Below, in pieces: positions 446 to 12,487 of a DNA stretch of 13,483 nt; the stretch's first letter is position 1, and every line of letters begins with the position of its first letter. Below the pieces are notes generated by a model. That model was not told where the DNA came from. It did not search any database and saw nothing but the letters and a program-made list of their open reading frames with translations. The position numbers and the translations under genes were made by a program. Origin of the DNA: Candidatus Heimdallarchaeota archaeon (GTDB lineage Archaea > Asgardarchaeota > Heimdallarchaeia > Heimdallarchaeales > Heimdallarchaeaceae); NCBI GenBank assembly GCA_021399395.1, contig JAAFKJ010000142.1, forward strand, positions 1 through 13,483, written 5' to 3'.

Positions 446-1061
446 GTACGGAAGTTTGCTAAAAGCAGACAAGAAGTCTGTTCTATCGGTAAGAAATATT
501 GTTCTCTTCAGTATAGTTGTCATTTCAGTCGTTCTATTCATTTCTTTCTTCGCATCCTTAACTTATTCGGACACAACTAACAGGTTGTTCTCTGACTTCA
601 CAGATACTGATCTAACAACGGTTCCTAGGGATATTGCTACATTAGATGGGTATATGCAAACAGAGGGGTTCCCCATATTTGTAGAAGGAGCAGGAATCAT
701 AATAACTCTCCCAGTTTGGGGAATAGGGTCTCTAATTAGCTCCTGTTTAGGGTTCAGTTCTCTCATAGTTAATTCAACCTTTTCTAAAACAATGTTGTTA
801 GAGAATAAAAGATGGCTGAAAACATGGTCGAAAAAAGGAACAATCACTTCTCATTATATGTTCAAGAGAGTACAAATAAAACTAGGAGAGAATAGGATTA
901 GTATTATGAAATTAAAGAACAGATACCGTTTCAAGATACCAATCACAGAAGGATTGGACCTTGCTAAATATGGATTTTCAACTAAGAATAACTTTTATGT
1001 GGGGTACTTTGCGAGAGAAGAACTGTCCAGTACTATTCATTTAGTAACTACACAGATGTAA
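429..1061 (+). CDS. Hypothetical membrane protein (two hydrophobic segments, basic C-terminal soluble domain)
   Basis: 210 aa; hydrophobic 'IVLFSIVVISVVLFISFFASL' and 'IIITLPVWGIGSLISSCLGFSSLIV'. Overlaps the upstream wHTH gene by 17 nt, suggesting an operon. Confidence 0.65.
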   Translation: MKTNGKYGSLLKADKKSVLSVRNIVLFSIVVISVVLFISFFASLTYSDTTNRLFSDFTDTDLTTVPRDIATLDGYMQTEGFPIFVEGAGIIITLPVWGIGSLISSCLGFSSLIVNSTFSKTMLLENKRWLKTWSKKGTITSHYMFKRVQIKLGENRISIMKLKNRYRFKIPITEGLDLAKYGFSTKNNFYVGYFAREELSSTIHLVTTQM

Positions 1062-1134
1062 TTATCTCTCACTTTTTAATGGAACGCTATTACGCTTCGC
1101 ATATAGCTTTTCTTGTCTACTTTCACTACTAACT

Positions 1135-1189
1135 GGACTCTTGTACAGAGTCCTCTTTGCCCTAGAGTGTAGAGTGGTGGAACTCTACA
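1135..1189. terminator. Two adjacent perfect hairpins between convergent genes; possible terminator or 3'-end structure
   Basis: GGACTCT-tgtac-AGAGTCC (1135-1153) and TGTAGAGT-ggtgga-ACTCTACA (1168-1189). Confidence 0.4.
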
Positions 1190-1215
1190 TTGAATTATCT
1201 TGCTCGAATTTCTCT

Positions 1216-2559
1216 TTAGGCAGTAGCACCATTACCGTTTGCAATATGTTTCCTTAGGTATGCTTGATTGTTTGATTCAGGTTGATCTGGCTTATATTTA
1301 CCAAAATTACCATTGATCAGTTTATCGTTGATCTTAGCGATTGTGCTGTCAAGCATCCACTCTTTATCAACTCTCCATTTCTTTTGTTTCCAATCGAAAT
1401 TCTCATACTCAAATGTCCAATATAGACCATGTTTTCCAAAGAAATCAAGTGAGTAGATTTTGTAGTCTTTGAAAGTACTCCAAATGAGATAATTAATATT
1501 TGATTCATCGTACGGAGGCATAGTAAGTCTGAGGAATATTCCTTTGTTATAGAGCTCGAGGTGGGATTGAAATGGTATATTCTCCTCGTGGAAGAAACGG
1601 AAAATTTGGGCTTTTTCCTTTTCTGGAACATTCTCAATGAAATATGCTCGTGTAGCATGTTGCTCAAATAATTTTCGACTGAAATTCCAGCGTGGATTAG
1701 TGATAAGATTATTCATTACTAGATTGTAGTATCTACGACCGAATTCAACTTTGGTGTTATGTAAATTCTTATCGTCAAAGAACTCACTTAAGTTGAAAAG
1801 CATTGATTCTTCTTCATGGGTTAGTTTGTTTTCCTCAGAAGAGTTAGCAGCAAGTTGATTCTTCTTTGTAAGATGTTTATATTTGTCTTGATAATGCTTA
1901 ATCAAATCAGTTTGTTTAGTTCTGATATCAATAACAATTCCGTTTTTAACAGAAGTAGTTAAATCCTTCAAAAGCTGGAAATGAAGAGGTTCTAAAGTAT
2001 TTAGATCAATTGCAGAAGGCAGTCTAGGCAAACTTGTACTTTTTGAAAGTCGTTTCTCCCAATATGATATTAGATCGAATGGTTTGGGATTCTGAGTATA
2101 GTTGGGTAGGGGTTGTGGCCTGGTGAACCGATAACCCATGGATTTCATTGTGAAATAACTATCACAATACTCCTGTTCAACTAAATGCTCAAGGTACTCG
2201 TTAAATAATTGCTCAGTATTCTCTGGTAGCTCGAAATGTGCGTAAATCCCAAAACTTTCACCATAAAAGCGATTGTATGCTCGAATATATTTGTGCTCAG
2301 ATAAGGCGTTTTGCAATAAAGTAAACTGGTGGAGCGAACTTATTGAAAACATGACACCATATCTATATAGTGAAATACGTTCAGGGACAAAAGACGCGAT
2401 AGGATTACGGAGAATCTCTTTCTTTTGCAATGCTTTAACTCGTCGAATCATTGTTTGGGGAGAAATATTTAGTTTCTCAGCCTGCTTAGAATATGGTTCT
2501 AGTGGATAATTCTGTAGAACATGCAGTATTTTCATGTCAAGTATGTTTAAATGATCCAT
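1216..2559 (-). CDS. Large Lrp/AsnC-family transcriptional regulator with two wHTH/effector-like modules (447 aa from ATG 2559)
   Basis: N-terminal 'LDMKILHVLQNYPLEPYSKQAEKLNISPQTMIRRVKALQKKEIL' is a typical Lrp/AsnC HTH, followed by a RAM-like region ('NRFYGESFGIYAHF'). A second degenerate module begins at 'LEPLHFQLLKDL'. ATG 2559 is preferred over TTG 2622 because SD-like GAGGT precedes it. Confidence 0.75.
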   Translation of the reverse strand: MDHLNILDMKILHVLQNYPLEPYSKQAEKLNISPQTMIRRVKALQKKEILRNPIASFVPERISLYRYGVMFSISSLHQFTLLQNALSEHKYIRAYNRFYGESFGIYAHFELPENTEQLFNEYLEHLVEQEYCDSYFTMKSMGYRFTRPQPLPNYTQNPKPFDLISYWEKRLSKSTSLPRLPSAIDLNTLEPLHFQLLKDLTTSVKNGIVIDIRTKQTDLIKHYQDKYKHLTKKNQLAANSSEENKLTHEEESMLFNLSEFFDDKNLHNTKVEFGRRYYNLVMNNLITNPRWNFSRKLFEQHATRAYFIENVPEKEKAQIFRFFHEENIPFQSHLELYNKGIFLRLTMPPYDESNINYLIWSTFKDYKIYSLDFFGKHGLYWTFEYENFDWKQKKWRVDKEWMLDSTIAKINDKLINGNFGKYKPDQPESNNQAYLRKHIANGNGATA

Positions 2560-2629
2560 TTTTTTTGACCTCTGTTTTTGTTTTTGTTTAATTTTTGTAA
2601 GAAACAGTTCAGGATAGATCAAGAAGGAG

Positions 2630-2875
2630 CTTGTAAAAGAAATGTAGCGTCCGCATTTTGCGGTTAGTTATGATTCCTTTTACAAGACCCTCTCGATATC
2701 CCCTTCGAGAGACTCTTTTAGACCTCTAACCTTGTTTCTTGTTGGTTTGACCCCTTGCACTTGAGTTCGAATTAGCTTCCTTAGACCTTTCCCGGAAACC
2801 TTTGAGGGGGGATCTGACCTATGTCCCCCCAGGTTTTCCTTTCTCGCCTGAAATTGAGGAAAGGGGTGGGGTTTC
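2630..2875. other. Structured non-coding spacer with several stem-loops (candidate cis-regulatory RNA or ncRNA)
   Basis: Stems: CTTGTAAAAG/CTTTTACAAG (2630-2639/2677-2686) enclosing CCGCA/TGCGG (2651-2663); CTCTCGA/TCGAGAG (2690-2711); GGAAACCT..GGGGGGA/TCCCCCC..AGGTTTTCC (2794-2839); CCTTTCTC/GAGGAAAGG (2838-2864). Confidence 0.5.
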
Positions 2876-2905
2876 TGGCGATTTTAATTTTTTGTCAGCA
2901 TGATT

Positions 2906-3226
2906 TTATCCAGCAGCTGCAAAGCCGTGATAACCGATTGGTTCATCTTCAACAGGTGCGGCTCCCCCAGGTAGAAACCCTATTGGTTCATCCTCGACGG
3001 GTGCGGCTCCTCCAGGAAGAAACCCTATTGGTTCGTCCTCGACTGGACTTGCTCCCCCGGGTCGAAATCCGATTGGTTCATCTTCAACGGGACTTGCTCC
3101 TCCGGGTCGAAATCCGATTGGTTCATCTTCAACCGGGATTGAATTTGTAATCAAGATTGTTCCTGCGAACAGCGCAAGAAATGTTATTACACAAAATACC
3201 CCAAATATTTTCTGTTTAGTTTTCAT
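2906..3226 (-). CDS. Signal-peptide (or signal-anchor) protein with five tandem PVEDEPIG repeats; candidate multi-core peptide precursor
   Basis: 106 aa. Basic N-region MKTKQK, hydrophobic IFGVFCVITFLALFAGTILI, then PVEDEPIGFRPGGAS x2, PVEDEPIGFLPGGAA x2 and PVEDEPIGYHGFAAAG. SD-like GGTGG lies just upstream of the ATG. Repeat differences are mostly third-position synonymous in this frame. Confidence 0.9.
   Translation of the reverse strand: MKTKQKIFGVFCVITFLALFAGTILITNSIPVEDEPIGFRPGGASPVEDEPIGFRPGGASPVEDEPIGFLPGGAAPVEDEPIGFLPGGAAPVEDEPIGYHGFAAAG
2909..3136 (-). repeat. 45-nt coding tandem repeat: four full units plus a divergent terminal unit
   Basis: Units at 3136-3092, 3091-3047, 3046-3002, 3001-2957 and 2956-2909. 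Unit 1 reads CCG GTT GAA GAT GAA CCA ATC GGA TTT CGA CCC GGA GGA GCA AGT. Confidence 0.97.
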
Positions 3227-3274
3227 TTATATTCCACCAGCTTAATTCGAGCTTGTATCTACGTGTGTACTAGT

Positions 3275-3295
3275 ATTATTTAAGAGTTGTTACAA
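3275..3295 (-). promoter_or_regulatory. Putative TATA box (CTTAAATAAT) of the repeat-peptide gene, with an adjacent TTGT-N-ACAA palindrome
   Basis: Minus-strand CTTAAATAAT at 3284-3275, the same 10-mer found about 25 nt before the 6265 start. TTGTTACAA at 3287-3295 sits in the BRE position. Confidence 0.45.
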
Positions 3296-3903
3296 TTTTC
3301 CATGTTTTTGAAAATAGTGGAAAAAAGTAACATGGAACAGTTAAGGTTGCATTACTCCATCACTTGGCAAATTTTTAAAAAACCGTCTAATTTTTTTTGT
3401 CGGGATATTACCATCTTCTCTTCTTGATCATTGTGTAAGGCAAAATGTAAAACACCTTACAAACGTGAAAATATCTGGGTATATACGAGGATGATATTTC
3501 TTAGATTTTTTTTCGTTTGTAACTATGATTTATTTGATGAAAACTAAAGTATTTTTGATTAAACAAACACGAGCTATAATTTTGTGAATTGTTGAGTAAA
3601 TTAGAATTAATTATCAATGATTTTAGCTATTTTTGTCGAAACCTAGTTAGTTAGTTGATTAAATGAGCTCAGTTTGCGATATGGGAATATGTAAAAAGTT
3701 ACTTATTTTCAATAAAAGCAAGTTAACAATCCATAAAAAAATACGTATTAATGGTGTGTATTTTTCTCCTTAAAAACTGGTTTAGTTGTATACAATCTGT
3801 CTTACAAGAATTTGTCGGAATATTAGGTGTGTTTTTCGTATCCTTTAACCTGAAAATAAATGATTTTGTTGATAAATCCTGATTTTTAATGGCTGAGTGA
3901 GTA

Positions 3904-5076
3904 TTAGTTTCTCTTTTTTCTATATATCCACCCTATTACAAGAAACATTGTAGATGTTAGCACCAAAGATAGTGTCGTTTCTGTTGTTGGTGTGACAAAA
4001 CCTTCAATCGCTGCTGGTATGATATACGTTTCTGCTATGTGTAGGAAAGGCCATTCACCCTCAGGTAAACTTGAAGTGAAGACTGTTACAATATCGTATC
4101 CTGGTAACACTAAAATTATTTGACCTGCCCATCCTATTGCTAAGTAAGTGTCAAGAGTAGGATAAACCCACCATTGATATCCATAGTCAATGAAATTTGT
4201 GTTTGTAACAGTAGCGTTTGATGCATGATGAACATATTCTTCCGAAATGATTTGAGTGTCATTCCATGTACCATTATTCAGATAAAGATATCCCAATTTT
4301 GCCATATCTCTCGGTTTAAGCTGTAAATCTGCCCCTCCAAAATATATACCTTGAGGATCTTGGAGCCAAAGCCAATCTTCAAACCCTAGAGGGTCAAATA
4401 GCTGTTCTATAGCATACTCCAGAGTAGTGTTACCTATTGCTTTCTCAACTATTGCTGATAATAAGTGTGATGCACCTGAATTGTATCTGAATGCCAATCC
4501 TGGTTCAGCTTCCATTTCCCTACTTAAGACATATTCCACCCAGTTTTCGCTTGCTTTCATTTGCGTGAAAGTGTTCGCAGGATCATAGTATGAAATATCT
4601 TCATTCCAAGCTATTCCCGAGGTCATTGTCAAAAGATGATAGATGGTAATATTTTCTCTTAATTCGATATTAGGAACAGAAACGTTGACAAAGAACTCCA
4701 TGATATTTTGATTGATACTATCTATGTATCCTTCATCTATTGCAATTCCAATTAGAGTGGAAACGAAACTCTTGGTTACAGAATAAACAGAATGTAGAGA
4801 ATCAGCTGTATAGAATCTAAGATATTCATCAACGACTAGATAACCATTTTTGACAATTTGAACACTATCGATGTCATAGTTGTTGCTGTCAATATATTCG
4901 AACATATTATCTATTGTTTGTTTGTTCAAATCTGCTTCCTCGAAGGAAGCCTTTTCCCAACCATTTGTGGGCCAATAATCTCGCTCGATACTAGCACAAG
5001 AATTTGTTAAAGTTGTAGAATTGGACAGAAATAGAATTATAAGCATAAAGTAAAAATACAGAGATTTGTTCTTCAT
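3904..5076 (-). CDS. Secreted, C-terminally anchored serine hydrolase of the beta-lactamase class C (AmpC/NylB-like) family
   Basis: SxxK motif 'YSVTKS', 'LLTMTSG', 'PGLAFRYNSG', 'PRDMAKLGYLYLNNGTW', 'YGYQWW', 'AIGWAGQ'. N-terminal signal peptide; C-terminal Thr-rich linker, hydrophobic helix and RKKRN tail. ATG 5076 has SD AGGTG and is preferred over 5109. Confidence 0.9.
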   Translation of the reverse strand: MKNKSLYFYFMLIILFLSNSTTLTNSCASIERDYWPTNGWEKASFEEADLNKQTIDNMFEYIDSNNYDIDSVQIVKNGYLVVDEYLRFYTADSLHSVYSVTKSFVSTLIGIAIDEGYIDSINQNIMEFFVNVSVPNIELRENITIYHLLTMTSGIAWNEDISYYDPANTFTQMKASENWVEYVLSREMEAEPGLAFRYNSGASHLLSAIVEKAIGNTTLEYAIEQLFDPLGFEDWLWLQDPQGIYFGGADLQLKPRDMAKLGYLYLNNGTWNDTQIISEEYVHHASNATVTNTNFIDYGYQWWVYPTLDTYLAIGWAGQIILVLPGYDIVTVFTSSLPEGEWPFLHIAETYIIPAAIEGFVTPTTETTLSLVLTSTMFLVIGWIYRKKRN

Positions 5077-5287
5077 AACTACACCTAATTTAATCTGAAT
5101 GACTTTCAAACAATTATATAGGTTTGTAAATAAAGCAAAAAGTTAGAAGGTATGGATTTTGTATTTATAAGCCCAGATTTATAGAAAACAGTTATTTTGA
5201 AATCATTAAATAAAGTCTCAACTACATTGTTAAATTCTGTTCTTTTACTAAATTAGTTTAGATTAACCTTTGTCCTGATCTCTATCA

Positions 5288-6265
5288 TCAGTCGCTTTCA
5301 CGTATTTCGTGTTCTCTGACTATTCTTCGTTCTTCATCTACCAGTAAACTCTGTTCAGCTTCTTCTCGAAGTCTGAGTTCTTCAATCCTTAATTCATATA
5401 TTCTTTCTAACTGATCTAATCTATCTGTCATAGCTGTTTCTGAAACATCGTCTCTCACTCCACGAGTTTCTATTTCTGCTTCTAGTTCTTCCATTCTGGC
5501 CTCAAGCCGTGCTCTTGTATCTTCTGTAATGATGAACATATTTGCATGATGGAAAAATAGTGTTTGATCATAGTGTCTTCGTTTTCCAGCTAGTCTGAGG
5601 GTGTATGTAATTTTTTCTCTTTCTTCTTCAGGTGCATCAGCTGTAACTGGTTCATGGTAGAACCGTTGCTTAGGTATAAAGATTCTTAAAGGATCATCAG
5701 GTGTATCATGAACCTTGGTGTAGAAATGCCTTAATCTTTTCATTTTTTTTCTTCTGGAAGTTTCTTTCATCAATGATTTGCTGTTATTTGTTCTTCTGGT
5801 TACTGGGTAGGTTTTTTTCTTGCTACTAGTTCTGTCAATTTCGTTGTCTTCATCATCCCTAACAATTGTTGTAACTGGCTCGTGAGTTCTGAAAATCTGT
5901 AGAAAAGGATATTTCCTTTTACTATTTCGTTTTCTAGAACCTTGTCTACTACTAACCGTGAAAATCAAATCCCAAGGAACTTCTGGACTGATTTCGTAAT
6001 TTGTTACCTCTACCTTGATAATACATTTCTTCCTGTTTTTACTCTCCTTTAATCTCCTTTTTCTCTTCCTAACAGGTCTTCCTCCTAAAGCAATGTAGTC
6101 ATAATCGAAATAAGTTTGCATACAAGTTTCTCCACCAGAGTGCAAAATTGCTCCTGTGATGTCTAGTTTGGCTTTGACTAATTTCTGTGCTCGGTCGTCA
6201 TGATAGGATTTGACAGGTGATAATCTAAAAACTAAATTTGGTTTTTCACGACCAACTCCACTCAT
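5288..6265 (-). CDS. Hypothetical protein with a highly basic N-terminal region and a Glu/Arg-rich C-terminal coiled coil
   Basis: 325-aa ATG ORF with TATA-like CTTAAATAAT at 6296-6287. No family motif recognised. Confidence 0.7.
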   Translation of the reverse strand: MSGVGREKPNLVFRLSPVKSYHDDRAQKLVKAKLDITGAILHSGGETCMQTYFDYDYIALGGRPVRKRKRRLKESKNRKKCIIKVEVTNYEISPEVPWDLIFTVSSRQGSRKRNSKRKYPFLQIFRTHEPVTTIVRDDEDNEIDRTSSKKKTYPVTRRTNNSKSLMKETSRRKKMKRLRHFYTKVHDTPDDPLRIFIPKQRFYHEPVTADAPEEEREKITYTLRLAGKRRHYDQTLFFHHANMFIITEDTRARLEARMEELEAEIETRGVRDDVSETAMTDRLDQLERIYELRIEELRLREEAEQSLLVDEERRIVREHEIRESD

Positions 6266-10747: not shown

Positions 10748-12487
10748 TTACTCACCCATATCTTTCATGATATCAAAAATTTCTCTCTCTTCTTCTTCAG
10801 CTTCCTCTGGTATAGCATAAATTGTTCCTAGAAGAGAAGCTCTATACTGGATTTTAGCTGCCATTTCTACCTGTTGGCAAACAGTCCAAGCTTGATCCAA
10901 AGTAGATCCACAAGCAGCATTTCCATGATTAGCAATAAACACAGCTAGATTTTCACCTAATGCTTCCACTGCATTATTCGCAAGGTCATCTGTTCCAGCC
11001 ATCCCAAATTCAGCTACTTCACATCCACCAATAAAAGGAATAACTTCATCAACAATTGGGCCTATAGGTATTCGAGCAATGGATAGGGCAGTTGAATAAG
11101 GAGCATGAGAATGTACAATTGCTTTGATATTTTCGCGTGCTTTGTATATCGCAAGATGTAGTCTTTTTTCAGAAGTAGGATTTCTGTGTCCAGCAATAGT
11201 ATCTCCATTTTCATCTATCAATACTACATCCTCAATTCCCATCTCTTCATATTTTACCGAGCTAGGAGTAACAAGAAAAGCATCAAGACCATTAGGTAAT
11301 GTGACGCGTGCAGAAACATTTCCAGCTGTTCCTACAATATATTCTTTCTTTATCATCTTTATACATATGTTGATGATTTCTTGGATCTTCCCTGAATACA
11401 TCTCAAGGGTAGGAATAATATCTGATAGTTCTTCACTTGCATCAGCTGTTTGAACACCAGGAGAGTAACCTTCCAGCACTTCTGGATTTATTATATTTTC
11501 AGGAATTTGATTATTCAATATTTGTTGTATTCCATTTACCATCAACATGGAATGGCGATGATTAGTATCAAAAGTATCTCCACCAACATGTGGTGTGACA
11601 ATAACGTTTTCTAACTCTAGAAATTCATTATCTTGATCTACGGGTTCTATCGAAAATACGTCTAAAGCTGCTCCTGCAATCTTCTTTTCTTTTAAAGCAT
11701 CCAAGAGAGCATATTCATCTACAATTGAAGCTCTAGCTGTATTAATGAAGTAAGCATGTTTCTTCATTAAGGCAATCTGTTCTTCACCTATCATATCATC
11801 AGTTTCATCCGTAGGCGGACAGTGAAGAGTAACAATATCTGCATTTGACATAAGAACATTAAGTTCCACAGATTCTCCTTGGATTGCGGTTAACCTAGCA
11901 GGAAGAACATAGGGATCATGAACCAAGAACTTAACCCCAAAAGGAAGAAGAAGTTTCGCAACATTGAAACCTATTCTACCTAAACCAATAATTCCTACTG
12001 TTTTACCTTTTAATTCAAAACCTTTAAACGCATTATAGTAATTGACATAGTCTTCAAATTCATTTACTTCAAACGCATTATCTGTATGTAAAACTCGTTC
12101 GATGGAATGAAGTTTTCGAGCTAAACTTAGGATGAGTCCGACGGTTAATTCCGCAACTGATATAGTGTTTCTATTAGGTGCAAAAAGGACAGGTATTTTT
12201 TTAGAGGTAGCTGTCTCCAAATCAATATTATTTGGGTCTCCTCTAGTAGAGCCAATAATTTTGAGATTAGTTTGCTCAATGACTGGTTTCTTAACATTAT
12301 CTCCTTCACAAATGAGTATTTCAGCACCAATCTCATTTATCTTTTTGATTAAGTCTTCATCATTAAAATACAAGTTCTTAGTGTTGCGCCAACTTTCATA
12401 GACTATGTCATCTTGAATGATAGTCTTGAGTTTTTCAAGAGCTTCTGGAGAAAAATCAGCTGTAATATACGCTTTCATTTTATTCAC
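10748..12487 (-). CDS. Fusion of a D-2-hydroxyacid (phosphoglycerate-dehydrogenase-like) NAD-dependent dehydrogenase and a class II aldolase/adducin (FucA-like) domain
   Basis: N-terminal domain: 'SVAELTVGLIL', 'GIIGLGRIG', 'INTARASIVDE', 'LDVFSIEP', 'TPHVGG'. C-terminal domain: 'GTAGNVS', 'VTPS', 'PTSEKRLHLAIY', 'IVHSH', 'NHG'. The start is GTG 12487 or ATG 12478. Confidence 0.92.
   Translation of the reverse strand: MNKMKAYITADFSPEALEKLKTIIQDDIVYESWRNTKNLYFNDEDLIKKINEIGAEILICEGDNVKKPVIEQTNLKIIGSTRGDPNNIDLETATSKKIPVLFAPNRNTISVAELTVGLILSLARKLHSIERVLHTDNAFEVNEFEDYVNYYNAFKGFELKGKTVGIIGLGRIGFNVAKLLLPFGVKFLVHDPYVLPARLTAIQGESVELNVLMSNADIVTLHCPPTDETDDMIGEEQIALMKKHAYFINTARASIVDEYALLDALKEKKIAGAALDVFSIEPVDQDNEFLELENVIVTPHVGGDTFDTNHRHSMLMVNGIQQILNNQIPENIINPEVLEGYSPGVQTADASEELSDIIPTLEMYSGKIQEIINICIKMIKKEYIVGTAGNVSARVTLPNGLDAFLVTPSSVKYEEMGIEDVVLIDENGDTIAGHRNPTSEKRLHLAIYKARENIKAIVHSHAPYSTALSIARIPIGPIVDEVIPFIGGCEVAEFGMAGTDDLANNAVEALGENLAVFIANHGNAACGSTLDQAWTVCQQVEMAAKIQYRASLLGTIYAIPEEAEEEEREIFDIMKDMGE

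Follow-up and report, generated by a model that had tools for sequence, protein, structure and literature searches.

Layout and co-inheritance of the peptide gene, spacer and regulator gene

The DNA analyzed here is a 13,483-nt contig (JAAFKJ010000142.1, assembly GCA_021399395.1; referred to as the window) of a Candidatus Heimdallarchaeota archaeon, and the subject of the analysis is a cassette on its minus strand that comprises a small gene for a predicted exported repeat peptide, a structured spacer and a gene for a tandem Lrp/AsnC-type regulator. The source genome comprises 2.8 Mb and is 82% complete. Read along the minus strand, the locus begins with an open reading frame (ORF) for a beta-lactamase-fold serine hydrolase with a predicted N-terminal signal and C-terminal anchor (3904-5109, ATG at 5076). 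It continues with an intergenic gap of 677 nt (3227-3903) and the peptide gene (2906-3226, 106 amino acids), which is the sole copy in its own genome. The regulator gene lies beyond the spacer, with an ORF at 1216-2622 (468 codons) and a conserved start, ATG at 2559, that gives a protein of 447 amino acids. A preliminary description of this DNA had suggested that hydrolase, peptide and regulator might serve as processing enzyme, signal and sensor of a quorum-sensing-like circuit. Its layout was accurate, as three co-oriented minus-strand genes are present (3904-5076, 2906-3226 and 1219-2559), separated in the first case by the 677-nt gap. The same applies to the absence of an oligo-T run after the peptide stop until about 2640, near which the first run of more than three T residues on the minus strand, TTTCTTTT, was located. 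The bin 2501-3000, which holds most of the spacer, has a G+C content of 0.42, the maximum of the window, with values of 0.27-0.39 in the other bins.

The distribution of the cassette was followed in 25 genomes of the genus, including the window's own, and in 47 genomes of the order. An orthologue of the regulator (53-85% identity) was identified in 18 of the 25 genus genomes, and a covariance model of the spacer RNA (R1) found exactly one copy in each of these 18 and none in the remaining seven. No match to R1 was found in the 22 genomes searched that represent the order's 12 other genera. A co-oriented ORF with a signal peptide and repeats lies 346-399 nt upstream of the regulator in all 13 loci with complete upstream DNA; five more loci are truncated within the repeats by the start of the contig and show the 3' end of the repeat ORF. 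Seven genus genomes have none of the three elements, i.e., neither the regulator orthologue, the spacer RNA nor the signal-peptide repeat ORF. The linkage of peptide, structured spacer and Lrp-type regulator that had been proposed is therefore upheld by co-inheritance of all three or none, and a check that had been suggested with it, the search for upstream signal-peptide repeat ORFs near regulator homologues, found one at every orthologue with upstream DNA, with a repeat unit that shifts by clade. Altogether, the peptide gene, the spacer RNA and the regulator gene are one conserved, co-inherited unit, and the RNA is a novelty of this single regulator orthologue group.

The N-terminus of the peptide consists of a K-rich n-region and a 20-residue hydrophobic stretch ending in TNS, from which a signal peptide of about residues 1-29 with cleavage after TNS is predicted. 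The mature part would then be composed of 4.5 copies of PVEDEPIGF[RL]PGGA[SA], encoded by a 45-nt tandem repeat at 2934-3138 on the minus strand (Tandem Repeats Finder: period 45, 4.5 copies, 85% matches). This array is an assembly breakpoint, since contigs of four related genomes (G013, G014, G018 and G019) begin within the repeats. Window DNA was also present in 13 public sequencing runs, one of them an RNA run, which was compared over 1000-5300. Contigs of the public DNA runs stop at 3086-3088 and restart at 3104-3124, with raised depth in the repeats, so the real number of units may be above 4.5. The upstream ORFs of the orthologous loci encode a similar signal peptide followed by 1.5-7 copies of a unit of 15-19 amino acids. 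The units are clade-specific (PVEDEPIGFRPGGAS, PVEDEPIGAMLPGGAG, PVTDEPIGNGMDQAGGAG, PDGGYPDEPIGGNFASGGG, GPDDGQTDTPLQGITDK and DPTGGFPDEPIGGLFKE) and have a common core of an acidic residue, Pro, [IVL] and Gly.

The hydrolase matched PF00144 (Beta-lactamase) with an E-value of 4.1e-29, and its translation carries SVTK, an instance of the S-x-x-K pattern that we take to be the catalytic motif of class C beta-lactamase-related serine hydrolases (PF00144). Direct reading of the protein revealed that its N-terminus is hydrophobic and that a second hydrophobic stretch, at the C-terminus, precedes RKKRN; among solved structures it is closest to Lsa45 (8dc1, E 3e-43) and to 6-aminohexanoate-dimer hydrolases. 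A circuit of three genes, in which this surface enzyme processes the peptide precursor and belongs to the cassette, would be in keeping with its co-oriented position directly upstream of the peptide gene in the window and four other loci (5 of 13, with gaps of 0.3-0.9 kb). It would also be in keeping with the presence of orthologues of at least 51% identity in 11 of the 18 cassette genomes and in none of the other seven, although the cassette genomes are close kin that have a whole neighbourhood in common (wHTH121, TM210, p124, AKR and FGGY). However, in three of the 13 loci the hydrolase is 1.9-4.1 kb away behind other ORFs, and in five it was not found in the 2.5-8.7 kb of upstream flank. 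A homologue at E<=1e-40 was not found in six of the 18 cassette genomes, which are 80-90% complete. In addition, a conserved candidate promoter of the peptide gene's own lies between the two genes, and the paralogous gene pairs found across the phylum (see below) have no hydrolase neighbour in the flanks read. Due to the variable linkage, the missing homologues and the separate peptide promoter, the hydrolase is a neighbour and lies outside the unit. The circuit of three genes is largely refuted by synteny, and the processing role given to the hydrolase in the preliminary description is now highly improbable.

On the other side of the regulator, two overlapping plus-strand genes encode wHTH121 (80-445; 121 amino acids, winged-helix-like) and TM210 (429-1061; 210 amino acids, two transmembrane segments). 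This pair is convergent on the 3' end of the regulator gene, which it abuts in 11 loci with DNA on that side; it is 0.8-3.4 kb away in three loci (L044, L045 and L046) and was not seen in three others (L047, L048 and L049). The wHTH121 protein is 78-91% identical among loci, i.e., it is better conserved than the regulator. Other minus-strand genes of the window encode a Lys/Arg/Glu-rich protein of 325 amino acids (5288-6265), which is close to the cassette in just two other loci, and a 579-amino-acid protein in which a D-2-hydroxyacid dehydrogenase is fused to a class II aldolase (10748-12487). The sole match that the Rfam and tRNA scans gave anywhere in the window, to the Rfam S15 leader at 11699-11795 (27.4 bits against a gathering score of 39.5), lies inside the ORF of this fusion and was taken as chance. 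Searches of Pfam and NCBIfam returned no family for the peptide, the partner proteins described below, wHTH121, TM210 or the 325-amino-acid protein.

Structure of the spacer RNA and the promoter of the peptide gene

The intercistronic RNA between peptide and regulator genes is about 340 nt long, and its structured core occupies 2717-2883 on the minus strand, where model R1 scored 153.8 bits (alignments A2 and A3). Within this core are the invariant blocks ATCGCCAGAAA-CCCCACCCC-TTTCCTC, CAAGGGGTCAAACC and TTAGAGGTCTA; blocks of 27, 14 and 11 nt are invariant across 16 spacer sequences. The spacer is better conserved than the proteins: stretches of it retain about 87% identity in comparisons in which the regulator has only 54-59%. 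The best supported element is the hairpin P2 at 2794-2838 (minus strand), composed of GGAAAACCT, GGGGGG, a loop with AGGTCA, CCCCCC and AGGTTTCC, which was observed in individual folds and shows compensatory changes. Towards the 3' end of the spacer, at 2625-2720 on the minus strand, lie two more hairpins, which correspond to the inverted repeats I2 and I3 (CTCTCGA/TCGAGAG and CTTGTAAAAG/CTTTTACAAG) and are less conserved between clades.

A consensus computed with RNAalifold on a plain MAFFT alignment was poor (-13.4 kcal/mol) because stems of differing length were misaligned, and it was replaced by a hand-set structure, from which R1 was built and with which the 18 copies were realigned using Infernal. 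In the resulting alignment 85% of the cells are paired. The covariation score was 0.298, compared to 0.154 +/- 0.013 in shuffles (none of 500 as high) and 0.056-0.122 with slid partners. The inner helix of P2 carries double, compensatory changes at all eight of its pairs among the 18 sequences, and two short helices contribute one covarying pair each. G-U cells outnumber A-C cells (41 versus 24), an excess that leans towards the minus, or sense, strand as the RNA strand. An Rfam scan of 1216-5076 returned no RNA family at E<=1, and a tRNA scan of the same region found none. The spacer is a structured RNA without an Rfam family; the structure that had been noted there was corroborated by the covariation and by the eight compensatory pairs of P2.

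The motif RGGTCW occurs six times on the minus strand of the 338-nt spacer, compared to 14 occurrences in the remaining 13.1 kb with both strands counted, and three of the spacer sites are invariant across the genus. These sites (2566-2820, minus strand) are 28-35 nt apart in the spacer core and resemble Shine-Dalgarno sequences; one lies in the loop of P2 and one in the ribosome-binding site of the regulator. The ribosome-binding region of the regulator, AGAGGTCAAAAAAA, is located at 2560-2572 on the minus strand, with AGAGGTC before the ATG and AGGTCA at 2566-2571. Additionally, in nine of 16 orthologous spacers (L037-L043, L050 and L051) an ATG follows the invariant AGAGGTCTAA downstream of block TTAGAGGTCTAA, and this ATG opens a frame of about 50 codons (MGSL...) that reaches into the regulator start. 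The frame was rejected as coding, as the ATG is absent in the window and in one whole clade and the residues past MGSL are not conserved.

Alignment of the 130 nt upstream of 12 peptide genes revealed a conserved promoter-like arrangement. A palindrome of 43 bp, GTTACnnTTTTCCA-N15-TGGAAAAnnGTAAC (3289-3331, inverted repeat I1), lies directly upstream of a putative TATA box, TTAAATAA, at 3276-3283 on the minus strand. At the TATA position, TTTAAATA or TTAAATA is kept in 11 of the 12 loci; the TTTAAATA-type box begins 5 nt past the palindrome. The conserved 5' leader of the peptide gene, AAGCTCGAATTAAGCTGGTGGAATATAA (3227-3255, minus strand, from the alignment of 12 leaders), contains the Shine-Dalgarno sequence GGTGG at 3234-3238 and ends in GCTGGTGG before the ATG. 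The palindrome was matched once in the window and not at all in 200 shuffles, and the site at 3289-3331 is the only one of its kind in the 2.8-Mb genome. Both half-sites are complete in eight of the 12 loci, partial in three, and represented by the right half only in one. The position of the palindrome just upstream of the TATA-like box would fit an operator for the adjacent helix-turn-helix (HTH) protein.

Two observations on related promoters are added here. In locus L044 (genome G004), the palindrome is not followed by the TATA-like run, TTTATATATA, but encloses it between its two halves; the TATA box would be covered by a protein bound to this site, and the effect could be repression and not activation. 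Pairs of TTCCA...TGGAA or TGGAA...TTCCA, 12-17 nt apart, were seen around the TATA-like boxes of partner genes in three of six partner-type paralogue cassettes (L025, L026 and L004) and echo the inner half-sites of the window palindrome; they are too short to be weighed as evidence.

The leader and the spacer RNA also contain complementary segments. In the window, 2764-2774 in the RNA can pair with 3243-3253 in the peptide leader (minus strand; I12, 11 nt, 91% complementary). The two places pair in all 12 loci, and their letters change together between clades. The complementarity is real, and it may act at the level of sense RNA, antisense RNA or DNA.

Regulator fold and the secreted partner family

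The regulator was matched in Pfam by HTH_AsnC (PF13404, 28.6 bits against a cut-off of 27) and PF13412 (26.4 bits against 21.9); the scan revealed only the AsnC-type HTH, with no AsnC_trans_reg/RAM family and no TPR family. An AlphaFold2 (AF2) model built from a set of 21 orthologues and paralogues reached a pLDDT of 83.3 and a pTM of 0.81. It predicts an HTH followed by a beta-alpha-beta-beta-alpha-beta module, this combination twice, and then a disordered C-terminus; the RAM-like modules lie at about 50-147 and 286-371. In Foldseek searches some thirty Lrp/AsnC regulators matched the N-terminal half, and full-length Lrp structures aligned over about 140 residues with E-values from 8e-6 to 1e-3. 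The best match over the whole length was NirDL (4ch7, E 1e-8, 12% identity). The HTH family match, the model and the Foldseek matches together support the Lrp-type label given previously and refine it to two fused modules. The AsnC HTH and an Lrp-like fold stood, the RAM domain is not one that Pfam recognises, and the protein is modelled as a fused double Lrp/AsnC fold with two HTH and RAM-like modules.

The NirDL match raises the alternative that the tandem-Lrp protein is an Lrp-fold enzyme or chaperone, similar to NirDL or AhbA/B, that acts on or with the upstream product before its export. NirDL (4ch7) and AhbA/B (4czd) resemble the regulator in having a fused or paired double Lrp-like fold, and there are weak sequence matches to the NirDL-like HTH (PF22451) and to AhbA. 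With only 12% identity to NirDL and 17.8 and 19.9 bits on the AhbA model NF040708, against a cut-off of 140, the regulator is not a siroheme decarboxylase by sequence. The window does contain a radical SAM gene, but its product scored 20-25 bits on NirJ models with cut-offs of 515-650 and comes near no NirJ or Ahb model, and no haem or haem d1 synthesis context (NirJ, AhbC or AhbD) was found for it in the window. The presence of numerous paralogues per genome, all paired with a secreted partner of their own, and of a palindrome at the promoter also speaks against an enzyme, and we regard this alternative as very unlikely.

The regulator belongs to a large family. Paralogues of 370-415 amino acids, 19-34% identical to it, were matched in 45 of the 47 genomes of the order. 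The gene directly upstream of these paralogues encodes a partner protein of about 160 amino acids with a signal peptide, a beta-sandwich domain and a tail of the form FDPPGG...DP.G..... An AF2 model of the partner domain had a pLDDT of 83.6, and Foldseek returned only generic beta-sandwich matches, none with E<0.001; in the model, the tail forms a loop and a terminal beta-strand packed on the domain. The partner family (A4) was present in 39 of the 47 genomes, with 114 matches and up to nine per genome. At least 70 of the 114 matches have a co-oriented member of the regulator family directly downstream (<=1.5 kb), with a median gap of about 60 nt. Across the phylum, the partner was detected in 60 of 201 sampled genomes. 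Outside the order, the best partner match of each of 20 genomes was picked by E-value alone, and a tandem-Lrp gene lies immediately downstream in all 19 testable loci, from 19 genomes; the twentieth locus is cut by a contig end.

The partner tails reveal the origin of the peptide. Tails of the form FDPPGGSGDADPCG... align with the repeat unit PGGAGPVEDEPIG, and tails from outside the order, FDPPGGSGDADPCGSLVV.., align with the repeat unit in the register PGGAG-PVEDEPIG and with the last unit of the peptides. In one clade the peptides have retained YTFDL..GP, a remnant that derives from the partner's last strand, YTFDPPGG. Because the tails align with the repeat unit and this remnant is kept, the peptide gene is a partner gene that has lost its domain and multiplied its tail.

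A third tandem-Lrp subfamily of 373-376 amino acids, with one member per genus genome (L005, G000:C147:3963-5078, and orthologues), has a different upstream gene, whose product of 285 amino acids carries a signal peptide and, at its C-terminus, a membrane anchor.

Proposed operation of the cassette and comparison with known systems

The reading that we favour, tentatively and with a probability of roughly 45%, is that the peptide gene, the RNA and the tandem-Lrp gene form one self-regulated operon in which the RNA tunes both ORFs and the ligand of the regulator is left open. A single transcript would run from a promoter at about 3260-3331 through the regulator gene. The pseudo-dimer formed by the tandem-Lrp protein would bind the palindrome upstream of the TATA-like box and so set the transcription of its own operon. 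The intercistronic RNA would pair with the leader and Shine-Dalgarno region of the peptide gene, setting the amount of peptide relative to regulator. The peptide would be exported, and signal peptidase would release a string of acidic Pro/Gly units. The RAM-like modules might sense an amino acid, the usual type of Lrp ligand, or else a piece of the peptide after its export. Co-transcription, palindrome binding, fold-back of the RNA, and export and cleavage of the peptide are the steps that we infer.

Several observations weigh against this operon. The evidence for the RNA and the peptide comes from a single genus, so the sequences are not independent. In the RNA model, the long-range helix 1 never varies, and helix 2 is 70% paired and lacks compensatory change; with support mainly from P2 and other helices weak or invariant, the architecture beyond P2 is provisional. 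The palindrome is degenerate in four of the 12 loci. The contigs of the public RNA run, which derive from a close relative (91-99% likeness), covered only 1415-1485 and 1895-2204 within the regulator ORF and left both the peptide gene and the spacer uncovered; DNA carry-over is possible, and the run is silent on transcript ends as only parts of the regulator ORF were covered. The pairing energy of leader and RNA in the window was no better than that of shuffled leaders (30 of 40 shuffles were as good), and the pairing beat all 40 shuffles in only five of the 12 loci. Moreover, the reverse strands paired as well or better in 10 of the 12, and because of this the complementarity could be a property of the opposite strand or of the DNA itself, as an inverted repeat.

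A DNA inverted repeat that flanks the peptide ORF and serves, for instance, inversion or recombination, with no RNA interaction, would fit the location of the two arms on either side of the ORF and the about equal pairing of both strands. Against it, Pfam identified no recombinase gene in the window, no inverted form was present among the contigs of four sequencing runs, and the orientation is the same in all 13 complete loci. We therefore consider such a role of the complementarity barely credible.

The self-regulated operon leaves the ligand open, and a more specific proposal is a closed, quorum-sensing-like loop, in which the exported repeats are cut to units of 15-19 amino acids, re-imported and bound by the RAM-like modules, with autoinduction through the palindrome. 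Across the phylum, genes for a secreted product and for a cytoplasmic regulator have stayed next to each other, and in most clades the multi-copy part of the precursor starts exactly at the predicted signal-peptidase site. The units of one clade end in Lys, and the unit sequence is clade-specific with a retained D-E-P-I-G core. The partner tails that are most like the repeat unit belong to the closest paralogues of the regulator (29-34% identical). The location of the candidate operator, ahead of the TATA-like box, would suit an activator; Ptr2 and other Lrp-type activators work from such a position. However, Pfam identified no importer among the genes of the window, and the model of the ancestral partner has its tail packed against the domain and not free as a peptide. 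Paralogous pairs, and families as well, show strong conservation of the tail motif, such that cross-talk would be expected between the several pairs of one cell, in contrast to the pheromone families that are known. Joint divergence of peptide and regulator is what adjacency alone would produce in close kin, and it is not proof of sensing. When the regulator (alignment A1) was modelled in complex with peptide residues 30-106, the score was 0.00 in two runs without controls, a result given no weight in either direction. On balance, the loop is a serious contender, though in our judgement less probable than the self-regulated operon.

Amongst known systems, the RRNPP pairs (Rap-Phr, PlcR-PapR, NprR-NprX and AimR-AimP), which occur in Bacillota and their phages, are similar in that a small exported pro-peptide gene lies beside the gene of a cytoplasmic regulator and in that there are several paralogous pairs per genome. 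The corresponding signal-peptide ORF was found upstream in the 18 cassette genomes. The receptor differs, as the modelled fold is a tandem Lrp/AsnC fold instead of a TPR-type peptide-binding fold. The layout and host also differ, with the peptide gene upstream, its unit in 2-7 tandem copies, a structured RNA of about 340 nt thereafter, and an Asgard archaeon as host. Ordinary Lrp/AsnC regulators (PH0061, 2dbb; E. coli AsnC, 2cg4; Sulfolobus ST1022, 2efo) resemble the regulator, which has an N-terminal HTH_AsnC, a modelled alpha/beta RAM-like domain and a palindromic candidate site at the promoter of its own locus. In contrast to them, the regulator has two modules fused in a 447-amino-acid chain, with RAM unrecognised by Pfam, and its gene is paired with a secreted-product gene across the phylum.

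Fungal multi-copy pro-peptides such as yeast alpha-factor are repeat precursors processed by Kex2. They resemble the peptide in that a short unit is repeated head to tail behind a signal peptide, whereas the archaeal peptide has no dibasic Kex2 sites and originated from the multiplied tail of a beta-sandwich protein. Pairing of a 3' with a 5' untranslated region within one mRNA is reported to occur in icaR of Staphylococcus aureus, where, as here, a downstream segment is complementary to the leader and Shine-Dalgarno region of the same gene; in the cassette the segment lies within an inter-cistronic structured RNA, and the pairing is predicted and ambiguous as to strand.

A literature search covering titles and the openings of abstracts found nothing on this cassette. 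The RNA structure without a family, the double-Lrp family with its many paralogues, and the strict Asgard-wide pairing of that family with genes for secreted proteins appear to be undescribed. The locus is a compact candidate that brings together a candidate promoter operator, an RNA and a ligand candidate, and it offers a case in which a small peptide gene arose from a gene for a secreted protein of which only the tail was kept and then multiplied. To our knowledge, no peptide signal with a known receptor has been established for archaea. It is doubtful, and rather improbable at present, that the cassette is the first instance of archaeal cell-to-cell signalling by a peptide, with a multi-copy precursor that is exported and cut to short acidic peptides, a fused double-Lrp receptor that senses these and autoinduces through the palindrome, and an RNA of a new family that gates translation of signal relative to receptor. 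If this were true, the pairs of beta-sandwich and tandem-Lrp proteins found across the phylum would be the ancestors of the system and a general device of Asgard archaea for reporting from outside to inside, and a system with a pro-hormone-like precursor would be present in the Asgard lineage closest to eukaryotes.

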